Shown here in pieces: positions 1,308 through 16,506 of a stretch of 30,214 nt of DNA. The DNA is taken from the IMG/VR virus record IMGVR_UViG_2541047931_000006, one strand, 5' to 3'. Origin of the DNA: a virus. Taxonomy: Duplodnaviria; Heunggongvirae; Uroviricota; Caudoviricetes. The translations under genes were made by a program, and so were the position numbers. How positions within the stretch are numbered: position 1 is the stretch's first letter; every line of letters starts with the position of its first letter. Under the pieces are notes generated by a model. It searched no databases. It had not been told where the DNA came from and saw only the letters and a program-made list of their open reading frames with translations.

Positions 1308-3779
1308 TTAAAAATCAGCCTGACTCGGGATCAGTTTTTGCCAGATAACTGAAACGTATTTTGCCTGGTAACGGGCGTCATCAAGTGCATTATGGCGCTC
1401 ACCTTCGAATGGAATAGCCGTTCTGGCATCGAAGTCTATGGCTTTCCCCAGCTCAACGATTGTGCGTACATCGCGATCGTTGTAGTAACGCCACGGGCAG
1501 GGGATCCCCTGCCGTTCGTATGAACGGCGCAAAATCGTGTTGTCGAAGTTGGCTCCATTTCCCCAAACCTGAACAAAAAATTCACCGGAGTTTTCGTCGA
1601 TAAATTCCCGCAATTGTAACAGTGCATCATCTAACGGGATTTCATCGGTCATAATGGCAGATTGCGCTTCGCGTGATTGCTTAAGCCACCATTTAATGGT
1701 GTCCCGATCAATGACTCCGCCAGCAGTTTCCAGATCGATAGTCTTACTAAATTCCGGTCCCATATCTCCGGTTTGCGGATCGAAAAATATTGCACCTATT
1801 GAGATGATCGGGGCATCAGGATTTTTTCCCATGGTTTCAAGGTCGATCATTAGATGGTCACACGTCCTGCTGGTGGATGTGATTTCGTGATGACCGTTCA
1901 CCTTAATTGAGCGATCTGCCGTCTCGCCAGTTTCATTATCGCTATCGTGATGCTGATTGCCGCCAGTGTTCTCCTTGTGTGGATGTTCAGCGCCTTCCAT
2001 TTCCTCCGGATCATCTTCCTGAACTTCAACCTGATACTCTTCATCGAATGTTTCCTGGTATGTTGCGTCGCCCATCACCGCGCCACAATCAGGGCAGTTG
2101 CCGCCGCCGGTCTGACCGCAGGCGGTGCAGACTTTTTCCACTTCCTGTTGCGCCACTGGTTCAGGCTGTTTCGTTTCTGGCTCGTTTTGTAACGCATTTG
2201 GGCTGTTTTGTTCCGCTTTTTGGTAGTTCCGTTCCGATTCATGCTGGTTCTGGTTCACAGAATCGCGGGTCTGGATCCCCTTAACCCATTTCGGATCATT
2301 CGGGTCACTAATCCCTTCAACAAATTCACCACGTGATGCAGCAAGCAACTTATCGGCGTCAGGCTGGCTGATATTGGCTGCCTGCATAATTTTGTTTACT
2401 TCGTCAGCGGTAACTTTTATCGGCTCTGGTTGTTCTGAATCTTCAGCGGTATCTACATTTTGCGGTAAGCCCGTGTATGTGCCATTTTTTCGGGCAAAAT
2501 ATTCTTCTTTTGTGATTTCAGTGGCGCCAGCAGCCAGTGCCTTATCCAGACCAGAAAGTTTGTTTGCGCGACCGCATTTTTCTCCGTCCTTATCTGCGAA
2601 GAGGAAATAGAACGGCCCCTCACGCTCTACAGATGGTTCAGCTTCCGGCGCGGTTTCATTTTTTGGGATATCAGATACCTCAGTTTCCACTGCATCAGTT
2701 TGTGTTTCTGATGACTGGAGAACATCAACAGTGCCCAGGTCTGTTTCTTCATTCTCAAACACGCCCTTTGTCGTCAGGTATTCGCAGATATATTTGTTCA
2801 GTGCTATGGGATCTTTGTGAATGTCGATCGGACGCTCACGGACAAGGCCAAAAATAGTTTGGCGGTCGTAGCGAAGGGCATCAGGCTGTTTGCGCATTGA
2901 TGCCGAGATACGCTTCCAGTCTTCGCGGTCGTTGTCGATAACTTCATTTTTTGCCCAGCGATGGATGCTGCCGTCAATGTTTCCGGCATCCACATCACCA
3001 GGCCAGAGAGCGTAGGCCAGTTCGTCATCCAGTGTTTTCCATGTCTGCTTGTATTCGCGATGAATGGCAGCAATGACCGGGCTGATTTTTCCTGTTGAAT
3101 TTTCACTGTGCTGTTGATTGGTTCTGGCGCGGGCGAGATCAATAACAGACGTGTATTTTCCGGTTTCCTTGCGTTCACCTTCGCGACGTTTTTTCCAGAT
3201 GCGCATCTCTGCCTGAATTTCGGGCCATTTGGCACCAGGCTTACATTTATGCTTAACCCACCCGATGGCATGCAGCTTAAGCTCCGGATACATGGCGTTA
3301 ACTTCTGGCATTTTCATCAACGCTTCAACGATATGTCCGTCGAATGTTGCCATGTCTTCCTGCAACAATTCCTGTGCGCTAATAACCATATCAACGGTGA
3401 TGTTTTCACATGTGTCGAACTTAACCATGACAGCGTTCTGTACTTCAGGGGCCAGCTTGTCAAAAGTGACGTTCATCGGATCTGATTCAGTCTCAACCGG
3501 GACAAAGGAAGCAGACTCCTCATCCCAGCGGTTTTCCTGCATATATTCAGCATCCCAGGAATCGAGGGCAGGGCGGGGTATGCCGGGTTTATCCTCACAG
3601 ACAATAAATTTATAAGCGCAGTCCTGAGCTGCAGGGAATTGCTCCAGAAATTGCCAATGAAATTTTGCGCGTGCGCGACGCTCATCACCAGCTTCAATGG
3701 CAGTGGCCACCGCAACAGCGCTATCTTCTTTTATGGCCTGTTCATCAGGAATAGCAGCGCAAATAAAGACCTTACTCAT
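1308..3779 (-). CDS. Large prophage exonuclease with C-terminal DnaQ-like (DEDDh) 3'-5' exonuclease domain
   Basis: 823-aa ORF; C-terminal motifs IDLETMG (Exo I), VWGNGANFD (Exo II) and HNALDDARY (Exo III) are visible; a Cys cluster CTACGQTGGGNCPDCG sits mid-protein; position matches the early-left recombination gene of lambdoid prophages. Confidence 0.75.
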   Translation of the reverse strand: MSKVFICAAIPDEQAIKEDSAVAVATAIEAGDERRARAKFHWQFLEQFPAAQDCAYKFIVCEDKPGIPRPALDSWDAEYMQENRWDEESASFVPVETESDPMNVTFDKLAPEVQNAVMVKFDTCENITVDMVISAQELLQEDMATFDGHIVEALMKMPEVNAMYPELKLHAIGWVKHKCKPGAKWPEIQAEMRIWKKRREGERKETGKYTSVIDLARARTNQQHSENSTGKISPVIAAIHREYKQTWKTLDDELAYALWPGDVDAGNIDGSIHRWAKNEVIDNDREDWKRISASMRKQPDALRYDRQTIFGLVRERPIDIHKDPIALNKYICEYLTTKGVFENEETDLGTVDVLQSSETQTDAVETEVSDIPKNETAPEAEPSVEREGPFYFLFADKDGEKCGRANKLSGLDKALAAGATEITKEEYFARKNGTYTGLPQNVDTAEDSEQPEPIKVTADEVNKIMQAANISQPDADKLLAASRGEFVEGISDPNDPKWVKGIQTRDSVNQNQHESERNYQKAEQNSPNALQNEPETKQPEPVAQQEVEKVCTACGQTGGGNCPDCGAVMGDATYQETFDEEYQVEVQEDDPEEMEGAEHPHKENTGGNQHHDSDNETGETADRSIKVNGHHEITSTSRTCDHLMIDLETMGKNPDAPIISIGAIFFDPQTGDMGPEFSKTIDLETAGGVIDRDTIKWWLKQSREAQSAIMTDEIPLDDALLQLREFIDENSGEFFVQVWGNGANFDNTILRRSYERQGIPCPWRYYNDRDVRTIVELGKAIDFDARTAIPFEGERHNALDDARYQAKYVSVIWQKLIPSQADF

Positions 3780-3874
3780 TTTGTTTTAACCTCATTACAG
3801 ATTTCAGGGTGAACGAATCCCTGCCATTGCTGGCATTTTTAATCCGTTGGTATGGTGTTAATATGGCTGGAGGG

Positions 3875-4063
3875 TTATCCAGCCGGTGTTTCGTTATTCA
3901 GGTACAGCGATACTTTTTTTAGCGGGAGGCATTCACCAGAAATTTTTTGCTCGTCTCTTGCCTGGAGGCAGGATTCTTTACTTGCATAAATTCCGGTAAT
4001 CACATTCTGTGATTCACCCGTTATAAGAAAAACCGTCATCATCAGTGCAAATGCTGAAGTCAT
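3875..4063 (-). CDS. Hypothetical small protein with hydrophobic N-terminus
   Basis: 62-aa ORF in an AT-rich segment; start overlaps the stop of the upstream ORF (ATGA); no recognisable family. Confidence 0.35.
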   Translation of the reverse strand: MTSAFALMMTVFLITGESQNVITGIYASKESCLQARDEQKISGECLPLKKVSLYLNNETPAG

Positions 4064-4248: not shown

Positions 4249-4819
4249 TATCGCGTCCTCAACAATGAATTTTGTGATGCAGTGCCTGGTGCCTCCGGGT
4301 GACGTTAACCAGTTAACAATTAACGCCGGGTTAGTTGATGCTCGTTACGCCCGTAAAATACCGCCTTACTGCTTTAACTGTTCCGCGTGCGCATAGCCGC
4401 ATTCACCGCATCACAAAATTCACTTTAAAAAGGGCGGCAGAGCAGTCACGGAGTAAAACTGATACCGCCAAATGTCACCAGAAAATTGATAACAGAGGGC
4501 GTTGTAGCGGGGTTGTCACTTAAGCGTATGGTCAACCTGACAACCCGGTGCATTTTCTGGAGCAATGGAGGAAACCCCAGCCATACTTACCGCCGCGCCA
4601 TTTCGCGGAGTGCCACAACCGGAAGCGCACGGTCGAACTAAATTTAACGACACCGTACAGAGAGACCAATTTCGCCGTGCGCTTTCGCGTTATGCCCTGA
4701 CTTTTCAGGGACATATCCTTTCAGTAAGCTGTCAGTGCCGGATGCTCACCCGTGTCCGGCGCACGCACTCCACCTGACCCGTGGAGAACTCCTTAATTAC
4801 CAACCCTCAGGAGGGTGAA

Positions 4820-10910: not shown

Positions 10911-11147
10911 TTTTATGGATCACCTTTCTGATTGATTTCATATTGGCGAGGTGACGTGAGTTAAGTAGAATGGCTGCGGGTGCTTGAGGCTATCTGTCTC
11001 AGGCATGAACACTGAAAGGCAGATAGAGAAAAGCCCCAGTTAACATTTCGCGTCCTGCAAGACGCTTAACATTAATCTGAGGCCCAATCTATGTCTCACA
11101 AATGTAGGTTAGCCTCTTACGTGCCGAAAGGCAAGGGGAAGCAGGCT

Positions 11148-11303
11148 ATGAAGCAGCAAAAGGCGATGTTAATCGCCCTGATCGTCATCTGTTTAACCGT
11201 CATAGTGACGGCACTGGTAACGAGGAAAGACCTCTGCGAGGTACGACTCCGAACCGGCCAGACGGAGGTCGCTGTCTTCACAGCTTACGAACCTGAGGAG
11301 TAA
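11148..11303 (+). CDS. Hok/Gef-family membrane toxin (HokD/RelF-like)
   Basis: 51-aa product MKQQKAMLIALIVICLTVIVTALVTRKDLCEVRLRTGQTEVAVFTAYEPEE; RBS AAGGGGAA; the ORF track shows an in-frame upstream extension from 11091. Confidence 0.85.
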   Translation: MKQQKAMLIALIVICLTVIVTALVTRKDLCEVRLRTGQTEVAVFTAYEPEE

Positions 11304-11744: not shown

Positions 11745-12800
11745 GTGCGGGTATTACTTCGACCTGTTCTGGTACCGGAACTCGGGCTGGTGATCGTTAA
11801 GCCGGGCCGTGAATCCATGCCGGTATTCCACAATACCCGGGTACTGGTGGAGCCGGAACCGAAAAGCATGCGTAATCTGCCGTCCGGGGTCGTTCCTGCC
11901 GTTCGCCAGCCGCTGGCGGAGGATAAATCATTACTGCCATTTTTCAGCGACGAACGAGTGATTCGTGCTGCTGGTGGCGCTGGCGCATTGTCTGACTGGT
12001 TACTGCGCCATGTTAAATCCTGCCAGTGGCCACACGGCGATTATCACCACAGTGAAACCGTCATTCACCGTTATGGTACCGGCGCAATGGTGTTGTGCTG
12101 GCACTGCGACAACCAGCTGCGCGACCAGACCTCCGAATCACTCGGGCAACTTGCTCACCAAAACCTGTCTGCATGGATGATTGACGTCATACGCCATGCA
12201 ATGAATGGCTCGCAGGAACGGGAATTATCGCTGGCTGAATTATCCTGGTGGGCGGTCCGCAATCAGGTGGCGGACGCGCTACCGGAAGCGGTATTACGTC
12301 GTTCGCTGGGGTTGCGTGCGGAAAAAATCCGCTCAATGTACCGTGAAAGCGACATCGTACCGGGAGAGCAGACCGCCACCAGCATACTGAAGCAGCGCAC
12401 AAAAAATCTTGCGCCGCTGCCTCACGCCCACCAGCAAAACCCGCCACAGGAAAAGACGGTGGTCAGCATTGCCGTTGATCCGGAGTCACCGGCTCAGTAT
12501 CTCCAGCGCCAGAAATCACAACGGGAAGAGATGCCTGTATACACGCGTTGGGTAAAAACGCAGAAATGCATGACGTGTGGCAATCAGGCAGATGATCCGC
12601 ATCACATCATTGGTCATGGACTGGGAGGGATGGGAACAAAGGCTGATGATTTGTTTGTTATTCCGCTGTGCCGTAAATGCCATAGCGAACTACACGCCGG
12701 GGTAAAAGATTTTGAAGAAAAACACGGCAGCCAGCTGTTGTTGCTGATTCGTTTTTTAATGCACGCGAGAAATTCGGGTGTTCTGAAGTGGAAAGCATAA
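11745..12800 (+). CDS. DUF968-like phage protein with C-terminal HNH/zinc-binding-like motif
   Basis: 351-aa ORF, GTG start after GGAGG; C-terminus CMTCGNQADDPHHIIGHGLGG...IPLCRKCHSELH resembles the YbcO/DUF1364 nuclease-like Cys/His pattern; size and position match YdfU of Qin. Confidence 0.55.
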   Translation: MRVLLRPVLVPELGLVIVKPGRESMPVFHNTRVLVEPEPKSMRNLPSGVVPAVRQPLAEDKSLLPFFSDERVIRAAGGAGALSDWLLRHVKSCQWPHGDYHHSETVIHRYGTGAMVLCWHCDNQLRDQTSESLGQLAHQNLSAWMIDVIRHAMNGSQERELSLAELSWWAVRNQVADALPEAVLRRSLGLRAEKIRSMYRESDIVPGEQTATSILKQRTKNLAPLPHAHQQNPPQEKTVVSIAVDPESPAQYLQRQKSQREEMPVYTRWVKTQKCMTCGNQADDPHHIIGHGLGGMGTKADDLFVIPLCRKCHSELHAGVKDFEEKHGSQLLLLIRFLMHARNSGVLKWKA

Positions 12801-13166
12801 ATGACTGAACGCATAGAATTTGTTTTGCCTTACCCGCCAACGGTGAACACTTACTGGCGACGTCGTGGCAGCACATATTTTGTATCAAAAGTCGGTGAGC
12901 GTTATCGCCGTGATGTGGCGCTTATTGTTCGCCAGCAGCAACTGAAATTAAACCTGTCCGGAAGGCCGGCAATAGAAATTATTGCAGAGCCACCGGATAA
13001 GCGCCGTCGTGACCTGGACAATATCCTGAAGGCACCACTGGATGTACTGACGCATGCGGGGCTGCTCATAGACGACGAGCAGTTTGATGAAATTAATATT
13101 GTGCGCGGTCAGCTTGTTCCTGGTGGGCGGTTGGGGATAAAAATCACAGAACTGGAGTACGCATGA
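12801..13166 (+). CDS. rusA: RusA Holliday junction resolvase
   Basis: 121-aa ORF with the RusA motif DKRRRDLDNILKA and the typical N-terminus (LPYPPTVNTYWRRR); abuts the upstream gene. Confidence 0.85.
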   Translation: MTERIEFVLPYPPTVNTYWRRRGSTYFVSKVGERYRRDVALIVRQQQLKLNLSGRPAIEIIAEPPDKRRRDLDNILKAPLDVLTHAGLLIDDEQFDEINIVRGQLVPGGRLGIKITELEYA

Positions 13167-13852
13167 ATAACCAGTATTTACAGTTTGTTCGTGAGCAACT
13201 CATGATTGCCACCGCCGATTTGAGTGGATCAACAAAAGGGCAGCTTGAGGCCTGGCAGGAGAATGCCATGTTTGATACAGGGCGTTACAGGCGTAAAAAA
13301 ATCCGGTACCGCGATGAAGTGACTGGAAAAATGATAACGCGGGATAATCCACCAATCCCGGGAAAGCAATCGCTGGCGAAGGGGGCGTCAATTCCTCTCG
13401 TCAGTCCGGTTGAGTTTTCGACATCATCGTGGCGGCGGGCTGTTCTGTCTCTTGAAGAACATCATAAAGGCTGGTTGTTGTGGTGTTACAGCGGGAGTAT
13501 TTGTTGGGAATATCAGATCGCGATAACGCAGTGGGTGTGGAATGAATTTAAAACCCGGTACGGCACCAGAAAAATTGCAGGGAAAACGCAGGAGCGCGTG
13601 AAGAAGTTGATCTGGCTGGCGGCACAGGATGTCAGAGGATGGATTACCGGGTGTGAGGTCTACCAGAGACAGGAGCTTGCCAGACTGTGTGGAGTTAAGC
13701 CTGATAACTGGAGCCATAATTATGCGAACTACTGGCGTGAGATGTGCGATATTTTTAAGAGTCTCGATAGAGAATCTGTGATTTGCACCGTGAAAATAAG
13801 AGCGCAACAAAAAGCGACTTTTTCACGACGAGATATTGCAAAAGTCAATTAA
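13163..13852 (+). CDS. Putative late-gene antiterminator (Q-like)
   Basis: 229-aa ORF overlapping the rusA stop (ATGA); sits where Q lies in lambdoid phages, before a terminator and the late region; assignment is positional. Confidence 0.45.
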   Translation: MNNQYLQFVREQLMIATADLSGSTKGQLEAWQENAMFDTGRYRRKKIRYRDEVTGKMITRDNPPIPGKQSLAKGASIPLVSPVEFSTSSWRRAVLSLEEHHKGWLLWCYSGSICWEYQIAITQWVWNEFKTRYGTRKIAGKTQERVKKLIWLAAQDVRGWITGCEVYQRQELARLCGVKPDNWSHNYANYWREMCDIFKSLDRESVICTVKIRAQQKATFSRRDIAKVN

Positions 13853-13913
13853 ATAGCGTACGTTTCGTATAAATCTGATATTTTGCCGATTTTGTACGCG
13901 ATGGCAAAGTAAG

Positions 13914-13944
13914 AAAAAAAACTGCCGTCAGGCGGTTTTTTTTA
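13914..13944. terminator. Hairpin flanked by A8 and T8 tracts (bidirectional terminator-like)
   Basis: AAAAAAAA-CTGCC-GTCA-GGCGG-TTTTTTTT read directly, about 60 bp after the Q-like gene. Confidence 0.5.
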
Positions 13945-14065
13945 TGCCCAAAATCGCGTCAGTACAGTAAACACGCTGGTGGTTGCGAATACGGGTCTTT
14001 CAGCTTGCTGGCTTTTTCGACAAGAGTTATTGGTATGTCACGTTAACCGGAAAAAGGAAAAAGAC

Positions 14066-14263
14066 ATGCTAAAACAGCAGGATATGACAGAAACCGCCAG
14101 AGTGGTGTTTAATGAATTAAGCGTTACTGAACCGGCGACAGTCGGGGAGATAGCGCAGAATACTTACCTTTCACGCGAACGCTGCCAGTTAATACTGACC
14201 CAGCTGGTTATGGCGGGTCTGGCAGACTATCAGTTCGGTTGTTACAGACGCCTTCAGTCCTGA
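14066..14263 (+). CDS. Hypothetical small protein (possible wHTH)
   Basis: 65 aa from the ATG at 14066 preceded by AAAAAGGAAAAAG; no recognisable family. Confidence 0.4.
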   Translation: MLKQQDMTETARVVFNELSVTEPATVGEIAQNTYLSRERCQLILTQLVMAGLADYQFGCYRRLQS

Positions 14264-14413
14264 AGGCTTTTTTATTTGTGGTAAATGGGCGGCTGGTGGG
14301 TGTTAGGGGCACCCACCAGCCATCTGCTCATGCGTTGGGTTCACAAGCAAACCTCAGGCCCACTGCTTTGCGCAAAAGCAGAATGAGCCTATCAGAGACA
14401 GGCTTAATGATCC

Positions 14414-15463
14414 ATGCTTAATACTGTAAAAATATCCAGTTGTGAGTTAATCAACGCCGACTGCCTGGAATTTATCCGGTCGTTACCCGAAAATTCTGTT
14501 GACCTGATAGTCACGGACCCGCCGTACTTTAAAGTGAAGCCTGAGGGCTGGGATAACCAGTGGAAGAGCGACGATGATTACCTGAAGTGGCTGGACCAGT
14601 GTCTGGCGCAGTTCTGGCGGGTGCTGAAACCTGTCGGAAGTCTTTACCTGTTCTGTGGTCATCGCCTGGCATCTGATATCGAAATCATGATGCGTGAACG
14701 CTTCAGTGTGCTGAACCATATTATCTGGGCGAAGCCGTCCGGACGCTGGAACGGATGCAACAAGGAAAGCCTGCGGGCGTATTTCCCCGCCACAGAGCGC
14801 ATTCTGTTCGCGGAACATTATCAGGGGCCGTATCGTCCGAAAGATGCCGGGTATGCGGCGAAGGGCAGTGCACTGAAACAGCATGTGATGGCCCCGCTGA
14901 TTTCTTACTTTCGTGATGCGCGCGCTGCCCTGGGGATAACGGCAAAACAGATTGCAGATGCCACAGGAAAGAAAAACATGGTGTCGCACTGGTTCAGTGC
15001 CAGTCAGTGGCAGCTACCGAACGAAAGCGATTATCTGAAATTACAGTCGCTGTTTGCCCGGGTGGCAGAAGAGAAACATCAGCGCGGTGAACTGGAAAAG
15101 CCCCACCACCAGCTGGTGGATACGTATACGTCACTGAACCGGCAGTATGTGGAGCTGCAGAGTGAATATAAGCATCTGCGGCGGTATTTTGGTGTGACGG
15201 CGCAGGTGCCGTACACGGATGTGTGGACACATAAACCGGTGCAGTTCTATCCCGGGAAACATCCGTGCGAAAAACCGGCAGAAATGCTGCAGCAGATAAT
15301 CAGCGCAAGCAGTCGTCCGGGTGACCTGGTTGCAGATTTTTTTATGGGCTCAGGTTCAACGGTAAAAGCGGCACTGGCGCTCGGGCGTCGTGCGATTGGC
15401 GTTGAACTGGAGACCGGACGTTTTGAGCAGACAGTCAGGGAAGTTCAGGATTTAATCGTTTGA
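14414..15463 (+). CDS. DNA methyltransferase, beta-class amino-MTase (N6-adenine or N4-cytosine), orphan
   Basis: 349-aa ORF; DPPY motif (VDLIVTDPPYF) near the N-terminus and an FxGxG AdoMet-binding motif (FFMGSGSTVKAA) near the C-terminus; no adjacent restriction endonuclease gene. Confidence 0.8.
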   Translation: MLNTVKISSCELINADCLEFIRSLPENSVDLIVTDPPYFKVKPEGWDNQWKSDDDYLKWLDQCLAQFWRVLKPVGSLYLFCGHRLASDIEIMMRERFSVLNHIIWAKPSGRWNGCNKESLRAYFPATERILFAEHYQGPYRPKDAGYAAKGSALKQHVMAPLISYFRDARAALGITAKQIADATGKKNMVSHWFSASQWQLPNESDYLKLQSLFARVAEEKHQRGELEKPHHQLVDTYTSLNRQYVELQSEYKHLRRYFGVTAQVPYTDVWTHKPVQFYPGKHPCEKPAEMLQQIISASSRPGDLVADFFMGSGSTVKAALALGRRAIGVELETGRFEQTVREVQDLIV

Positions 15464-15512
15464 AACGGATGAGATTGCAGAATTAATTACGCACCATTAT
15501 TATTCTGCTCCC

Positions 15513-15588
15513 GGCCCTTTAGCTCAGTGGTGAGAGCGAGCGACTCATAATCGCCAGGTCGCTGGTTCAAATCCAGCAAGGGCCACCA
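15513..15588 (+). tRNA. tRNA with anticodon CAU (Met, or Ile if lysidine-modified; ileZ-like)
   Basis: Cloverleaf folded by hand: acceptor GGCCCTT/AAGGGCC, D-arm GCTC/GAGC, anticodon loop CTCATAA, T-arm GCTGG-TTCAAAT-CCAGC, 3' ACCA. Confidence 0.85.
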
Positions 15589-15595
15589 TCACATA

Positions 15596-15672
15596 CCGCC
15601 ATTAGCTCATCAGGAAAGAGCGCCAGCTTTCGAAGCTGGTTGCGCGGAGTTCGGGTCCCCGAAGGCGGTCCA
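15596..15672 (+). tRNA. tRNA-Arg-like (anticodon UCG) with atypical T-arm
   Basis: Hand fold: D-arm GCTC/GAGC, perfect anticodon stem CCAGC/GCTGG with loop TTTCGAA, 3' TCCA; acceptor and T-stem each have one mismatch and the T-loop TTCGGGT lacks the usual A58. Confidence 0.55.
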
Positions 15673-15685
15673 TTATCTGTATCCT

Positions 15686-15762
15686 GCGTTGTTAGCTCAG
15701 CCGGACAGAGCAATTGCCTTCTAAGCAATCGGTCACTGGTTCGAATCCAGTACAACGCGCCA
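15686..15762 (+). tRNA. tRNA-Arg (anticodon UCU)
   Basis: Hand fold: acceptor GCGTTGT/ACAACGC, D-arm GCTC/GAGC, anticodon stem ATTGC/GCAAT with loop CTTCTAA, T-arm ACTGG-TTCGAAT-CCAGT, 3' GCCA. Confidence 0.85.
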
Positions 15763-15777
15763 CACTTATTTTCCCTG

Positions 15778-15800
15778 GCTCGCTTTTGCGGGCTTTTTTT
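15778..15800 (+). terminator. Rho-independent terminator after the tRNA cluster
   Basis: GCTCGC-TTTT-GCGGGC hairpin (one G-U pair) followed by T7. Confidence 0.65.
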
Positions 15801-15805
15801 AAATG

Positions 15806-16020
15806 TCTCACAATTCAGGCGGTTGACTGTTGTCTGGTTTGCGGGGAGTTTGTTAAAAGAAACTGGCATGGTGAATCCCCCTGTGCGGAGGGGCAATCAG
15901 CGAGTAGGTATATGGGATAATCGCGGATTCAGGTGCTGGTACTGAATTCACCGGGAGGCACCCGGCACCATGCAATGGCACATAGCGCCACTCTCCAGCC
16001 CCTCTCCGGAGGGGCTTTTC
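15806..16020 (+). repeat. Structured non-coding module, copy 1
   Basis: Shares with copy 2 the blocks CTCACAATTCAG, TTGAC(T/A), TTTGTTAAAA, CATGGTGAATCCCCCTG(T/A)GCGGAGGGGC, TGAA(T/C)TCACCGGGAGGCACCCGGCACCATG and the terminal hairpin AGCCCCTCTCCGGAGGGGCTTT. Confidence 0.6.
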
Positions 16021-16273
16021 TGTGCCGGATACATCACAGTTTCTGGAACCTTAGGTACTACAGTATCAGTCAGGGTGCTATATTTTCAGATGTGATGAAA
16101 GCCTGTCAGCAGGCAGGGCGTATCGGAAATGACCCAGTAGAGAAAACGTTGACTCAGATACCGGTGCTGAGTTACCGGGAAACCGGCATCACATGACCGC
16201 TATCCTTCCAGGCCCATCCGCTCCGGTGGGCCTTTTTACTGCAGAAAACAGGTTCCCCGTTAAATGCTATGTT

Positions 16274-16506
16274 GCTCACAATTCAGTAAGTTGACAGTTG
16301 CCTGTCAGACTGGGCATTTGTTAAAAAAATTTCGCATGGTGAATCCCCCTGAGCGGAGGGGCGACTGGTGACGGTATAATCTCTGATTATCAAAACGAGA
16401 ATGACGCGGGTTTAGTGGCACCGGGCTGAACTCACCGGGAGGCACCCGGCACCATGTGCATGATGATACAGATACGCGGCTTTAGCCCCTCTCCGGAGGG
16501 GCTTTC
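16274..16506 (+). repeat. Structured non-coding module, copy 2
   Basis: Second copy of the same block set; carries a consensus TTGACA and a TATAAT hexamer; ends in the GCCCCTC-TCCG-GAGGGGC hairpin plus T-run; the flanking ACAAAAAAA-GCCCGCG...CGCGGGC hairpin would be a terminator on the minus strand. Confidence 0.6.

Follow-up and report, generated by a model that had tools for sequence, protein, structure and literature searches.

The closest described relatives of the locus studied here are prophage-encoded small RNAs of enterobacteria. In EHEC, EcOnc05 (~222 nt), EcOnc06 (~177 nt) and EcOnc27 (~235/247 nt) were detected by Hfq CRAC and Northern blotting (PMC4104026). All 11 STnc100 copies of strain EDL933 had RNA-seq reads, one of them being Northern-positive, and some had ribosome footprints (PMC5331693), whilst RpoD ChIP-exo signal was found at STnc100 promoters in Salmonella LT2 (PMC10794520). 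Variation in the STnc100 copy directly downstream of stx2B has been statistically linked to HUS outcome (PMC12711010). PasD1 and PasD2 are Hfq-dependent RNAs of 172-173 nt (PMC8550237), and common ancestry of PasD and STnc100 was proposed by Zhu, Shabalina and Storz. Eight Sakai prophages carry convergent sRNA 'dyads' in the interval from PR' to the lysis genes (PMC4104026, PMC7873438), an arrangement whose rationale was termed unclear in one review (PMC7873438).

The DNA analysed here (the window) is a stretch of 30 214 nt from a member of the Caudoviricetes, IMG/VR record IMGVR_UViG_2541047931_000006. An initial annotation had marked two diverged repeats of a structured non-coding element between its tRNA genes and a nanS-p-like gene, and had suggested either a pair of sRNA genes or a duplicated late promoter/antitermination unit. 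These repeats are copies of an already catalogued prophage sRNA gene family, STnc100 (EcOnc05/06/27), which is related to PasD, and three diverged copies of the family, not two, were found in tandem within 700 bp (Table 1).

STnc100 copies in the window and their surroundings

Both flagged repeats were recovered on the + strand by pairwise alignment (81 % mean column identity, 15790-16040 versus 16258-16530) and by exact-seed repeat finding, which gave an 88-nt block with 80 % identity (15807-15894/16275-16362) and a second, 31-nt block with 97 % identity (15942-15972/16426-16456). A covariance-model search against Rfam gave full-length matches (model positions 1-206) to STnc100 (RF02076) of 136.3 bits (E = 3e-30) for copy 1 and 165.4 bits (E = 1e-37) for copy 3, well above the curated gathering score of 47 bits that is the threshold for family membership. 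The element is therefore a recognized one, and members in EHEC, EPEC and Salmonella have been detected experimentally. The target of the EcOnc05 Northern probe was present in copy 1 without mismatches (15895-15929) and that of the EcOnc06 probe with one mismatch (15908-15942). Copy 3 was 77.8 % identical to the copy in phage 24B, and the EcOnc27 probe had no match in the window.

The 250-bp 'spacer' between the flagged repeats is the third, diverged copy, so that the reading as sRNA genes was essentially right but overlooked the middle one. This copy scored 30.1 bits (E = 5e-4) with the STnc100 model, under the 47-bit threshold, and was not significant with a sequence-only profile (E = 0.62); because of the latter value its likeness to the family is considered mainly structural. 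Its minimum free energy (MFE) fold gave the same architecture independently (z = -2.67; copy 1, z = -2.45). The middle copy is predicted to belong to the family from its match to the Rfam model, which takes structure into account, and from mapping of its helices one by one. Its assignment to PasD was considered and rejected (58 % identity), the PasD probe having no match in the window.

A fourth member was identified in the dicF-dicB spacer with an nhmmer profile made without the window rows (E = 4.9e-8); it gave 26.5 bits (E = 0.0016) with Rfam STnc100, which is under the 47-bit threshold. The same element is present in the dicF-dicB spacer of the Escherichia coli K-12 Qin prophage, and in both cases it lies ~20 nt upstream of the dicB Shine-Dalgarno sequence, as part of a promoterless subfamily found inside operons. 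Embedded in mRNAs as it is, this subfamily suggests that the fold has some cis or structural role.

Table 1. Features of the window discussed in the text; RNAs, helices and promoters are predictions
Feature	Position	Strand	Details
Fourth STnc100 member	4283-4412	-	Between DicF (4483-4432) and dicB-like ORF (4248-4060); no promoter of its own; P0 GAUGCGGUG/CACUGCAUC; pseudoknot CAGUUAA/UUAACUG; P3 CCCGG-AGGCA-CCAGG
Q gene	13163-13852
tRNA genes	15513-15762		ileZ-like (CAT), Arg (TCG), Arg (TCT)
Intrinsic terminator closing tRNA cluster	15777-15800	+	Left edge of 'moron' slot
Copy 1 upstream region	15807-15859	+	Conserved block CTCACAATTCAG 15807-15818; TTGACT 15823-15828
Copy 1 promoter	15830-15835, 15851-15859	+	-35-like TTGTCT, 18-nt spacer, extended -10 TGtTAAAAG
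Copy 1 RNA	15866-16021	+	~156 nt; EcOnc05/06 type
Copy 1 P0	15866-15873/15966-15973	+	GCATGGTG...CACCATG
Copy 1 P1	15877-15893	+	CCCCCT..GGAGGGG
Copy 1 P2	15925-15949	+
Copy 1 P3	15951-15965	+	CCGGG-AGGCA-CCCGG
Copy 1 pseudoknot	15896-15902 with 15934-15940	+
Copy 1 linker	15974-15996	+
Copy 1 terminator	15997-16021	+	AGCCCCTC-TCCG-GAGGGGCT, T-run
Middle copy promoter	16076-16084	+	Extended -10 TGcTATATT
Middle copy (element 2) RNA	16089-16238	+	~150 nt; diverged family member
Middle copy P0	16089-16097/16187-16194	+
Middle copy P1	16101-16114	+	GCCUG-UCAG-CAGGC
Middle copy P2	16151-16173	+
Middle copy P3	16175-16186	+	CCGG-GAAA-CCGG
Middle copy pseudoknot	16121-16126 with 16161-16166	+
Middle copy terminator	16210-16237	+
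Copy 3 upstream region	16275-16327	+	CTCACAATTCAG 16275-16286; TTGACA 16291-16296
Copy 3 promoter	16298-16303, 16319-16327	+	-35-like TTGCCT, extended -10 TGtTAAAAA
Copy 3 RNA	16334-16509	+	~176 nt; closest to copy after stx2B (EcOnc27 type)
Copy 3 P0	16334-16341/16450-16457	+	GCATGGTG...CACCATG
Copy 3 P1	16345-16361	+	CCCCCT..GGAGGGG
Copy 3 P2	16408-16433	+
Copy 3 P3	16435-16449	+	CCGGG-AGGCA-CCCGG
Copy 3 pseudoknot	16365-16370 with 16419-16424	+
Copy 3 linker	16458-16483	+
Copy 3 terminator	16484-16508	+	AGCCCCTC-TCCG-GAGGGGCT, T-run
Convergent sRNA gene candidate	16515-16619	-	Promoter TTGCGC 16619-16614, 18-nt spacer, TATTAT 16595-16590; RNA ~69 nt, ~16583 to 16515; terminator hairpin 16543-16522, U-run
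nanS-p-like gene	from 16737		DUF1737

The late-region copies were also confirmed to lie in the slot that had been likened to the position of the stx genes. In the Stx2 phage 24B the order is tRNAs, stx2AB, a single STnc100 copy, AsxR and nanS-p, so that stx2AB fills the corresponding interval upstream of one STnc100 copy at the same place, and the succession of tRNAs, terminator and stx2A resembles the left part of the slot in the window. The 5' edge of the Rfam model is a mosaic boundary, being the exact point from which the sequence is homologous to that of the Stx2 phage, and Stx2 phages carry the 3' flank of stx2B in place of the STnc100 -35 region. At the homologous loci examined, the elements were located in prophage regions adjoining Q, holin or nanS-p genes and most were flanked by promoter-like and terminator-like signals. 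The family was detected in 2869 of 5426 complete E. coli genomes, at up to 12 places per genome, and the tandem triplet in 351 of them; STnc100 is among the commonest prophage sRNA families in E. coli, and the flagged element is to be filed as known.

Downstream of copy 3, the convergent sRNA gene candidate resembles the EPEC RIL-seq sRNA 'E2348C_1409.E2348C_1408.IGR', with ~90 % identity on visual comparison. The Rfam families AsxR and AgvB (RF02703/RF02702) gave no match at E <= 1 in 13700-16800. The 66-nt sRNA HnrS (PMC13502914) was considered as a possible identity of the Q-proximal leader or the minus-strand RNA; nothing relevant emerged when complementarity to the mazF 3' end was looked for.

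Promoters, terminators and conservation of the fold

The motifs listed in the initial annotation, namely TTGAC(A/T), the closing stem, the internal hairpins and the terminator hairpin with its T-run, were all located at both copies, although TTGAC(A/T) is probably not the -35 element in use. The more consistent promoter is TTG(T/C)CT-18-TGtTAAAA(G/A), 7 bp downstream of that hexamer, and all three late-region copies possess a predicted extended -10 promoter ending 4-7 nt before the closing helix. The final T that is usual in -10 hexamers is missing from TAAAAG and TAAAAA. In copy 1 the distance from promoter end to P0 was 7 nt by the promoter-scan metric (6 nt before the G taken as start), in agreement with the high-scoring promoters of homologues, most of which end 5-8 nt before P0. 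Promoter scores of >=6 were obtained for 66 % of 44 diverged representatives, compared with 16 % of shuffled sequences. At the level of the consensus, the element is predicted to have a sigma-70 promoter of its own, with the start site where the closing helix begins, as well as its own intrinsic terminator. Terminator-like sites were numerous in 13700-16800 (13 versus 3.7 expected). The linkers are copy-specific (14-27 nt) and predicted to be mostly unpaired, apart from one short hairpin in the predicted fold of copy 1. A CRP-like or other regulator site in the CTCACAATTCAG block was dropped as a candidate, as only a weak half-site resemblance was seen by eye.

The Northern sizes of EcOnc05 and EcOnc27 are longer than the 156-176 nt predicted here for the flagged copies, and the EcOnc27 Hfq peak begins 11 nt upstream of the Rfam model start; because of these differences, some members would also start further upstream or be processed from longer transcripts.

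The predicted domain of ~105-125 nt comprises the closing helix P0, the hairpins P1, P2 and P3, and a pseudoknot between the P1 flank and the P2 loop, and MFE folding recovered the same helices in all three window RNAs. Homologues were collected mainly from IMG/VR scans, among the matches listed, and 44 diverged representatives were analysed; a scan of genome contigs with a 24-nt exact core gave nine loci. RNAalifold returned 24 pairs, 13 of them with compensatory changes, and such changes were seen in five helices and across genera. Pairing was possible in 88.7 % of structure cells, compared with 40-44 % (about 41 %) when partners were slid, and there were 174 double-change cells as opposed to 61.5 in shuffles, none of 500 shuffles reaching the observed value. 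The pseudoknot duplex averaged 6.2 bp in matched sequence pairs and 3.9 bp in mismatched ones. The G-U pairs, of which there are, for instance, 24 at columns 96/121, assign the structure to the + strand. The proposal that structure rather than coding is conserved was therefore upheld, both by this strong covariation and by the ORFs starting from the ATG inside the closing stem, which differ in length (25 codons in copy 1, 11 in copy 3).

The way in which the first homologue set was built made P3 invariant in it, and P3 was therefore checked with a second scan, anchored on P0/P1 at the opposite RNA end. Among the matches listed in that scan 119 of 142 instances shared one P3 sequence, loop included; covariation is free in the other helices. 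The pseudoknot is not in the consensus structure line of the Rfam STnc100 model printed by cmscan, and the word 'pseudoknot' is absent from the 2026 comparative paper. The details that appear to be new are the pseudoknot, the near-invariant P3 hairpin and the existence of a third and a fourth copy. What is added to the known family in testable form is a promoter model that places the start at the closing helix, a pseudoknot with strong covariation, a P3 of almost constant sequence that resembles a recognition site, tandem arrays of siblings whose linkers differ, and a promoterless version in the K-12 dicF-dicB spacer. Annotation is also corrected, in that RefSeq/GenBank 'hypothetical protein' ORFs overlie STnc100 RNA genes.

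Proposed function and alternative readings

Taken as a whole, the locus is very probably best explained as three tandem STnc100 sRNA genes, each a self-contained unit on the + strand. Judging from homologues, each promoter would fire constitutively in the lysogen and yield an Hfq-associated RNA of ~150-175 nt, the first bases of which would form the 5' strand of P0. The base-paired 5' domain may protect and identify the RNA, whilst the linker and U-tail would act as the base-pairing and Hfq module, by analogy with the PasD seed; the three different linkers would then define three sibling regulators. The layout further suggests that the row of terminators, together with that of the convergent gene, could stop RNA polymerase that starts at the tRNA and sRNA promoters from reaching nanS-p and the lysis genes, and that read-through would have to await modification of the polymerase by Q. 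Stx2 phages put stx2AB and one STnc100 copy in the 'moron' slot that the array occupies here.

A trans-acting seed alone would not explain the pseudoknotted domain or the near-invariant P3. There is a small but real chance that the fold is a mobile module that is read sequence-specifically by a conserved host or phage factor via CCGGG-AGGCA-CCCGG and the GGUGAAU/P1 junction. The closing helix starts from +1 and the covarying pseudoknot locks P2 to the post-P1 strand; the fold occurs both as a stand-alone gene heading late operons and as an embedded leader (dicB, K-12 Qin). If such recognition takes place, tandem arrays would raise the dose of the module several-fold and at the same time diversify the seeds joined to it.

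The fold could instead be mainly a cis-acting module, i.e. a leader or insulator that stabilizes the transcript, offers a processing site or binds a factor via P3, the stand-alone short RNAs being by-products in the manner of StxS and the lambda 6S RNA of antitermination control. The identity of P3 beside covarying helices, the promoterless members in operons such as that upstream of dicB, the density of terminator-like sites and the constant placement of late-region members on the Q-antiterminated transcript path, upstream of nanS-p/holin with any Q or holin family, are in favour of this; nevertheless, it is considered unlikely, as most late-region members have the anatomy of a gene, with a promoter at the 5' edge of the fold and a terminator, as the RNAs of homologues accumulate in discrete, Hfq-bound form without induction of the lysogen, and as PasD has many RIL-seq partners via a defined seed. 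The cis-acting and sRNA roles are compatible with each other. The late promoter/antitermination unit of the initial annotation would make the copies duplicated PR'-qut-tR' units that load Q, and their short RNAs the equivalents of lambda 6S and StxS. Each copy does have a promoter followed by a terminator ~150-175 nt on, like PR'-tR' units, the copies lie between Q and the lysis genes, and StxS is an example of how such leaders can become Hfq sRNAs (PMC7547250). The copies, however, start 1.95 kb downstream of Q, with a small ORF, a methylase gene and three tRNA genes intervening. The fold is found after Q genes of three unrelated families (PF06530, PF03589 and PF06323), whereas qut sites are Q-specific. 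Separate Q-proximal units were found at two homologous loci, L040, where a lambda-PR'-like unit consists of a TTTACT-17-TAATTT promoter followed by AACGATGGG and a terminator, and L063, which has an Rfam isrJ match (63 bits) directly after Q; window positions 13836-13945 are homologous to the isrJ-type unit of L063, and the window appears to have its own PR'-tR'-type leader unit there. Sigma-dependent pause elements are -10-like sequences in the initial transcribed region, e.g. AACGAT in lambda; on inspection, no hexamer having both key positions, A2 and T6, was seen in the STnc100 initial transcribed sequence GCAUGGUGAAUCCCCC. The Q-proximal unit of L040 carries AACGATGGG. Stx phages have PR'/StxS directly after Q and STnc100 after stx2B, and lambda possesses PR'-tR' yet gave no STnc100 match at E <= 1 in 43800-45600, a result on which the idea of a relic of the fold between tR' and S was also dropped. 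Because the family follows unrelated Qs that each have a proximal unit of their own, the late-promoter reading was rejected as highly improbable.

It is likewise very unlikely that the element is a riboswitch-like sensor in which promoter, aptamer and terminator gate read-through into nanS-p and the lysis genes. A compact pseudoknotted fold with conserved junction and P3 nucleotides, followed by a terminator upstream of the lysis genes, would suit a sensor, and in the E. coli copies GGAGGGGC serves as the 3' strand of both P1 and the terminator, which would allow alternative pairing. This likeness is restricted to the E. coli copies and is not kept in L063, where the terminator is GGCCCAC/GUGGGCU; the linker has no conserved antiterminator, the element is separated from nanS-p by the convergent gene and additional terminators, copies in tandem would control each other's read-through, and no riboswitch family was among the Rfam matches. 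REP/ERIC-like repeats, recombination scars at module boundaries or small protein-coding genes might account for the many occurrences per genome, for the mosaic boundary at the 5' edge of the Rfam model, and for the short ORFs, which are annotated as 'hypothetical proteins' in GenBank/RefSeq and in some EDL933 copies are accompanied by ribosome footprints. Such explanations are extremely unlikely in view of the compensatory changes in five helices across genera, which indicate selection on RNA structure, of the prophage contexts with promoter-like and terminator-like flanks, of the differing ORFs (an 87-aa ORF had no Pfam match) and of the absence of REP/ERIC-type repeats among the Rfam matches in 13700-16800.

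Comparison with known prophage RNAs

StxS, lambda 6S RNA and IsrJ of Salmonella are also short, terminated, constitutive RNAs of the lambdoid late-control region, and StxS is Hfq-bound and acts in trans. The start of these RNAs is the Q-loading promoter immediately behind Q, and they are specific to the Q type, whereas STnc100 lies further downstream, with any Q type, and has no sequence or structure match to them. The minus-strand candidate of the window shares with AsxR of 24B its position and convergent orientation relative to STnc100, and with AsxR/AgvB the 'UUGCC + terminator' 3' end. The AsxR/AgvB RNAs are 51-60 nt, with a ~42-nt 3' region that is conserved, as opposed to ~69 nt for the candidate, and the nearest relative of the latter is the unnamed EPEC RIL-seq sRNA candidate.

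STnc100 in EHEC, represented by EcOnc05, EcOnc06 and EcOnc27 (sRNA103), is located as in the window, between PR' and the lysis genes beside nanS-p, and has the same convergent partner arrangement. The EDL933 copies are dispersed, one per prophage, whereas the window has three in tandem, and the EcOnc27 linker and terminator differ from those of copy 3. PasD1 and PasD2 of EPEC E2348/69 (EHEC homologue EcOnc13) have a TTGACT-18-TAAAAA promoter and start at the G of GCAUGGUG, which is the RNA-seq-estimated 5' end of PasD1, 8 nt past that promoter. They share the architecture of the window copies, with P0, P1, a pseudoknot (AAUGAUC/GAUCAUU), P2, linker and terminator, and their STnc100 scores (37.7 and 41.4 bits) are sub-threshold and comparable to that of the middle copy. 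The identity of PasD to the window copies is only 58-62 %, and PasD differs in its reduced P3 and its longer linker (~55 nt), which bears the UGUGAG seed and to which, before the terminator, the RIL-seq chimeras map.

Identity and number of the STnc100 copies

The repeats lie in the late-control region of a lambdoid prophage, and the arrangement in E. coli CE10 and others is identical except for the absence of the insertion sequence. Two plus-strand copies of an element of ~220 bp (copies 1 and 3) were confirmed within 15806-16506, with 81 % column identity when aligned; exact-seed repeat finding returned blocks of 88 nt (80 %) and 31 nt (97 %). Every motif listed in the initial annotation was found at its position, and the inner ORFs have 25 and 11 codons as described there. 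An Rfam scan of the whole window matched both copies over their full length to the known family STnc100 (RF02076; copy 1, 136.3 bits, E 3e-30; copy 3, 165.4 bits, E 1e-37), above the gathering score of 47 bits.

Three Hfq-crosslinked RNAs, EcOnc05 (Sp4, ~222 nt on Northern blots), EcOnc06 (Sp17, ~177 nt) and EcOnc27 (Sp5/stx2, ~235/247 nt), have been reported (Tree et al. 2014, PMC4104026). When the Northern probe sequences from that paper were searched in the window, targets were found in copy 1 at 15895-15929 (EcOnc05, no mismatches) and 15908-15942 (EcOnc06, one mismatch). EcOnc27, which is sRNA103, overlaps an STnc100 copy starting 75 nt past stx2B (PMC12370729, PMC12711010, PMC7873438). 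RNA-seq reads fall on all 11 STnc100 copies of EDL933, of which one was Northern-positive (PMC5331693), STnc100 promoters in Salmonella LT2 are marked by RpoD ChIP-exo signal (PMC10794520), and the EPEC Hfq sRNAs PasD1/2 have been linked to STnc100 through structure (2026 preprint 10.64898/2026.05.13.724894). Of 5426 complete E. coli genomes, 2869 match the 731-bp array somewhere, with as many as 12 places in a single genome, and 351 of them hold at least 80 % of the triplet; other phages have tandem arrays as well (L003, L017, L021, L029, L034, L040, L078 and L096, among other comparison loci). The flagged copies are thus members of a known, curated and experimentally detected family and, given the family match, the detected homologues and the wide distribution, not a new kind. 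The details that this analysis adds are a middle copy, a dicF-dicB copy, a pseudoknot, the invariance of hairpin P3 and a promoter model with transcription starting at the closing helix, P0. Public records cover STnc100 RNA genes with minus-strand ‘hypothetical protein’ ORFs or pseudogenes (CE10, L001 5757-5882, CE10_RS30830; phage 24B, L002 3727-3922, vb_24B_19c/20c), and no ncRNA feature is annotated over these two stretches.

Two copies had been counted originally, but a third, diverged copy lies in the ‘spacer’ between them: a permissive Rfam scan of 13700-16800 gave a match at 16066-16239 (30.1 bits, E 5e-4), and helix-by-helix mapping located all family elements. The unconstrained MFE fold gives the same helices (z -2.67). 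This copy shares only 62-69 % identity with its neighbours and was missed by a sequence-only profile (E 0.62), so the likeness is mainly structural; PasD also falls under the STnc100 threshold (37.7 and 41.4 bits).

That profile, to which the window contributed no sequences, did detect a fourth member, located at 4283-4412 (minus strand) in the interval from DicF to a dicB-like ORF (E 4.9e-8; 26.5 bits against Rfam STnc100). It is without its own promoter and ends ~20 nt upstream of the dicB Shine-Dalgarno sequence. Qin of E. coli K-12 carries the same element in its dicF-dicB spacer (L135 ~2955-3085), with 93 % identity over the dicF-dicB region and a P3 of CCUGG/CCAGG containing a compensatory U-A pair. 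No description of this copy was found in the literature cited here. Another promoterless subfamily, with a GCGGC-type P1 hairpin, is found repeatedly in front of YfbR-like (HD-domain) and 274-aa genes (L012, L014, L024 and others), apparently in early regions. The hok/sok locus and DicF of the window are ordinary features of Qin/DLP12-like prophages.

Features of the window and of the corresponding region of phage 24B
Feature	Position	Strand	Details
DicF sRNA gene	4432-4483		77 bits
hok/sok-type toxin-antitoxin locus	10978-11303		Rfam sok, 120 bits, at 10978-11153; hokD-like ORF downstream
DUF968	11745-12800
RusA	12801-13166
Q antiterminator	13163-13852		PF06323, 229 aa
Terminator of Q-proximal unit	13924-13944
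Small ORF			between Q and methylase
N6/N4 methylase	14414-15463
tRNA-Met(CAT)/Arg/Arg	15513-15762
Terminator	15777-15800
STnc100 repeats	15806-16509	+
Copy 1 predicted promoter			TTGTCT-18-TGtTAAAAG
Copy 1 P3	15951-15965		CCGGG-AGGCA-CCCGG
Middle copy predicted promoter	16076-16084		extended -10, TGcTATATT
Middle copy P0			GAUGUGAUG/CAUCACAU
Middle copy P1			GCCUG-UCAG-CAGGC
Middle copy P2			loop pairs with strand 3' of P1, UAUCGG/CCGGUG
Middle copy P3			CCGG-GAAA-CCGG
Middle copy terminator	16210-16237
Copy 3 predicted promoter			TTGCCT-18-TGtTAAAAA
Copy 3 P3	16435-16449		CCGGG-AGGCA-CCCGG
Convergent small-RNA gene candidate	16515-16619	-	promoter TTGCGC-18-TATTAT (16619-16590); terminator 16543-16522
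nanS-p-like esterase	from 16737		interrupted by IS3-family element; N-terminal part 16737-17264, C-terminal part 18480-19850; uninterrupted in CE10 (617 aa)
IS3-family element	~17265-18480		orfA 17306-17617, orfB 17737-18483; Rfam isrC match within, 17302-17424
24B tRNAs	2532-2783		terminator next
24B stx2A/B			after terminator; partly swapped for cat (engineered phage)
24B STnc100	3755-3960		207.7 bits
24B AsxR	3962-4014		strand opposite to STnc100
24B nanS-p-like gene	4167-

Conservation of the fold

Exact-core scans gave at least 131 loci, nine from species-representative genomes (Escherichia, Shigella, Enterobacter and Leclercia) and at least 120 from IMG/VR; the listed loci contained the element 144 times, in 114 unique forms, from which came 44 representatives with less than 90 % identity. 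On the MAFFT alignment of these representatives (A3), RNAalifold predicted P0, P1, a short GCG/CGC helix, P2 and P3, with compensatory changes in 13 of 24 pairs. Reading of the alignment revealed a pseudoknot: the P2 loop is complementary to the 5-9 nt that immediately follow P1, and both sides covary (UCAGC/GCUGA, CUGGUG/CACCGG, CCAGUC/GACUGG, AAGGUUG/CAACCUU, ACUGGAUA/UAUCCAGU and others). Its duplex averaged 6.2 bp within the same sequence versus 3.9 bp when strands and loops came from different sequences, and duplexes of at least 5.5 bp formed in 73 % of matched versus 11 % of mismatched combinations. With the pseudoknot included, 88.7 % of A3 cells were paired, compared with 40-44 % when partners were slid by 1-3 columns; double-change cells numbered 174, the figure for shuffles being 61.5, and on no pairing measure was the observed alignment equalled by any of 500 shuffles. 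The compensatory changes, and pairing far above these controls, bear out the proposal that structure rather than coding is conserved, and the frequent G-U pairs identify the plus strand as the transcribed one.

P3 was invariant by construction in this first set, and a second scan, anchored on P0/P1, was used to test it independently. Among the matches listed, the 19-nt P3 core (CCGGG-AGGCA-CCCGG plus flanks) was identical in 119 of 142 instances, so P3, unlike the other helices, is conserved as sequence. The hairpin, which includes a Shine-Dalgarno-like GGAGG, looks like a sequence-specific recognition site; the remaining helices covary freely.

Promoters and late control

A sigma-70 promoter score of at least 6 was obtained for 66 % of the representatives versus 16 % of shuffled sequences. 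The promoters end mostly 5-8 nt before P0, where distant members have textbook examples (e.g. TTGACA-18-TAAATT). The TTGAC(A/T) proposed as promoter-like is present but is probably not the -35 in use, since it lies 7 bp upstream of the consistent promoters and the -10 available to it (GAGTTT or GCATTT) is poor; a role as alternative -35 is conceivable. It belongs to a CTCACAATTCAG-N4-TTGAC(T/A) block (15807-15828 and 16275-16296), upstream of the likely -35, which is common to both outer copies and many E. coli-type homologues and absent from the post-stx2B and middle copies; the block may be an alternative -35, a regulator site or a recombination boundary. Independent support for a start at P0 comes from EPEC PasD1 (173 nt), whose 5' end as estimated by RNA-seq (NC_011601 1060260) falls on the G of GCAUGGUG, 8 nt past a TTGACT-18-TAAAAA promoter, and which finishes in the terminator U-run. 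Analogous RNAs of the window would span 15866-16021, ~16090-16238 and 16334-16509. To judge by the sizes of EcOnc05 and EcOnc27 on Northern blots and by where the Hfq peak of EcOnc27 lies, longer forms of some members are produced as well.

The suggestion that the repeats are a duplicated late promoter/antitermination unit was not upheld. The fold lies downstream of three unrelated Pfam families of the late antiterminator Q (PF06530, PF03589 and PF06323), holins of three families follow it, and Q has its own proximal promoter-terminator unit in each case examined (L040, L063 and the window). In L040, an IMG/VR phage with a lambda-type Q, this unit consists of TTTACT-17-TAATTT, AACGATGGG and a terminator, and matches PR' of lambda together with the pause-inducing element there, AACGAT. 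After this lambda-like late promoter/terminator (PR'-tR') unit come three STnc100 copies in tandem, full or nearly so, and one more, weak match (23.8 bits, E 0.11) that is truncated where the locus ends (1702-2340 and 3187-3286); lambda itself has PR'-tR' and gave no STnc100 match at E<=1 in 43800-45600. In L063, whose Q is of the window's PF06323 type, the unit immediately 3' of Q matches Rfam isrJ (63 bits) and is followed by a separately promoted STnc100 copy, a convergent terminator and a holin. A homologous unit follows Q in the window (13836-13945, plus strand), with TTGCAAAA...TATAAATCTGATAT conserved (TATAAATCTGATAT from 13868), and E2348/69 has another one after its PP2 Q. The window unit, which itself has only weak isrK and Phe_leader matches, is a candidate for the real PR'-tR' unit of the PF06323-type Q. 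In Stx phages PR'/StxS lies immediately 3' of Q (PMC7547250).

The other role proposed initially, that of sRNA genes, is favoured by the gene anatomy seen in the sequence (promoter, structured domain, linker and terminator), by selection on the fold and by homologues detected as RNAs; tandem arrangement, a candidate convergent partner gene and the density of terminator-like sites are likewise seen there. A role of the fold in cis or in factor binding is kept in play by the elaborate 5' domain, the nearly invariant P3, the conserved CTCACAATTCAG block and the promoterless version in the dicB leader; we consider it improbable, and only slightly less so the related reading of the fold as a module recognised by a conserved host or phage factor.

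Function and comparison with other prophages

As sRNA genes, the copies would, judging from homologues, be expressed constitutively in the lysogen, and their RNAs would associate with Hfq. Base pairing would probably occur through the linker between fold and terminator, since the PasD RIL-seq chimeras (1060384-1060434) and UGUGAG seed lie in the linker directly before the terminator. The three window linkers differ (CAAUGGCACAUAGCGCCACUCUCC, ACCGCUAUCCUUCC and UGCAUGAUGAUACAGAUACGCGGCUUU), which would make the copies sibling regulators, each with a specificity of its own. In 13700-16800 there are 13 terminator-like sites versus 3.7 expected from shuffles, a strong enrichment consistent with an operon passable by Q-modified polymerase only; from the layout, transcription begun at the tRNA or sRNA promoters may be halted by successive terminators ahead of nanS-p and the lysis genes until such polymerase reads through.

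The claim that the repeats occupy the stx slot proved correct. In 24B, stx2A/B sits between the tRNAs and STnc100/nanS-p-like gene, and homology with copy 3 begins at CTGTCAGACTG, where the Rfam model has its 5' edge; the stx2B 3' flank stands in place of the upstream CTCACAATTCAG...TTGACA block. In the window prophage the slot is occupied by two extra family members and no stx. The convergent candidate, whose predicted RNA of ~69 nt would end at its own terminator, matched neither the AsxR nor the AgvB Rfam model in the scan of 13700-16800, and is ~90 % identical by eye to an EPEC RIL-seq sRNA not otherwise named (E2348C_1409.E2348C_1408.IGR; predicted seed CUUGCG). It holds the position of AsxR in 24B and Stx2 phages, and such a partner agrees with the convergent sRNA ‘dyads’ that have been reported from eight Sakai prophages.
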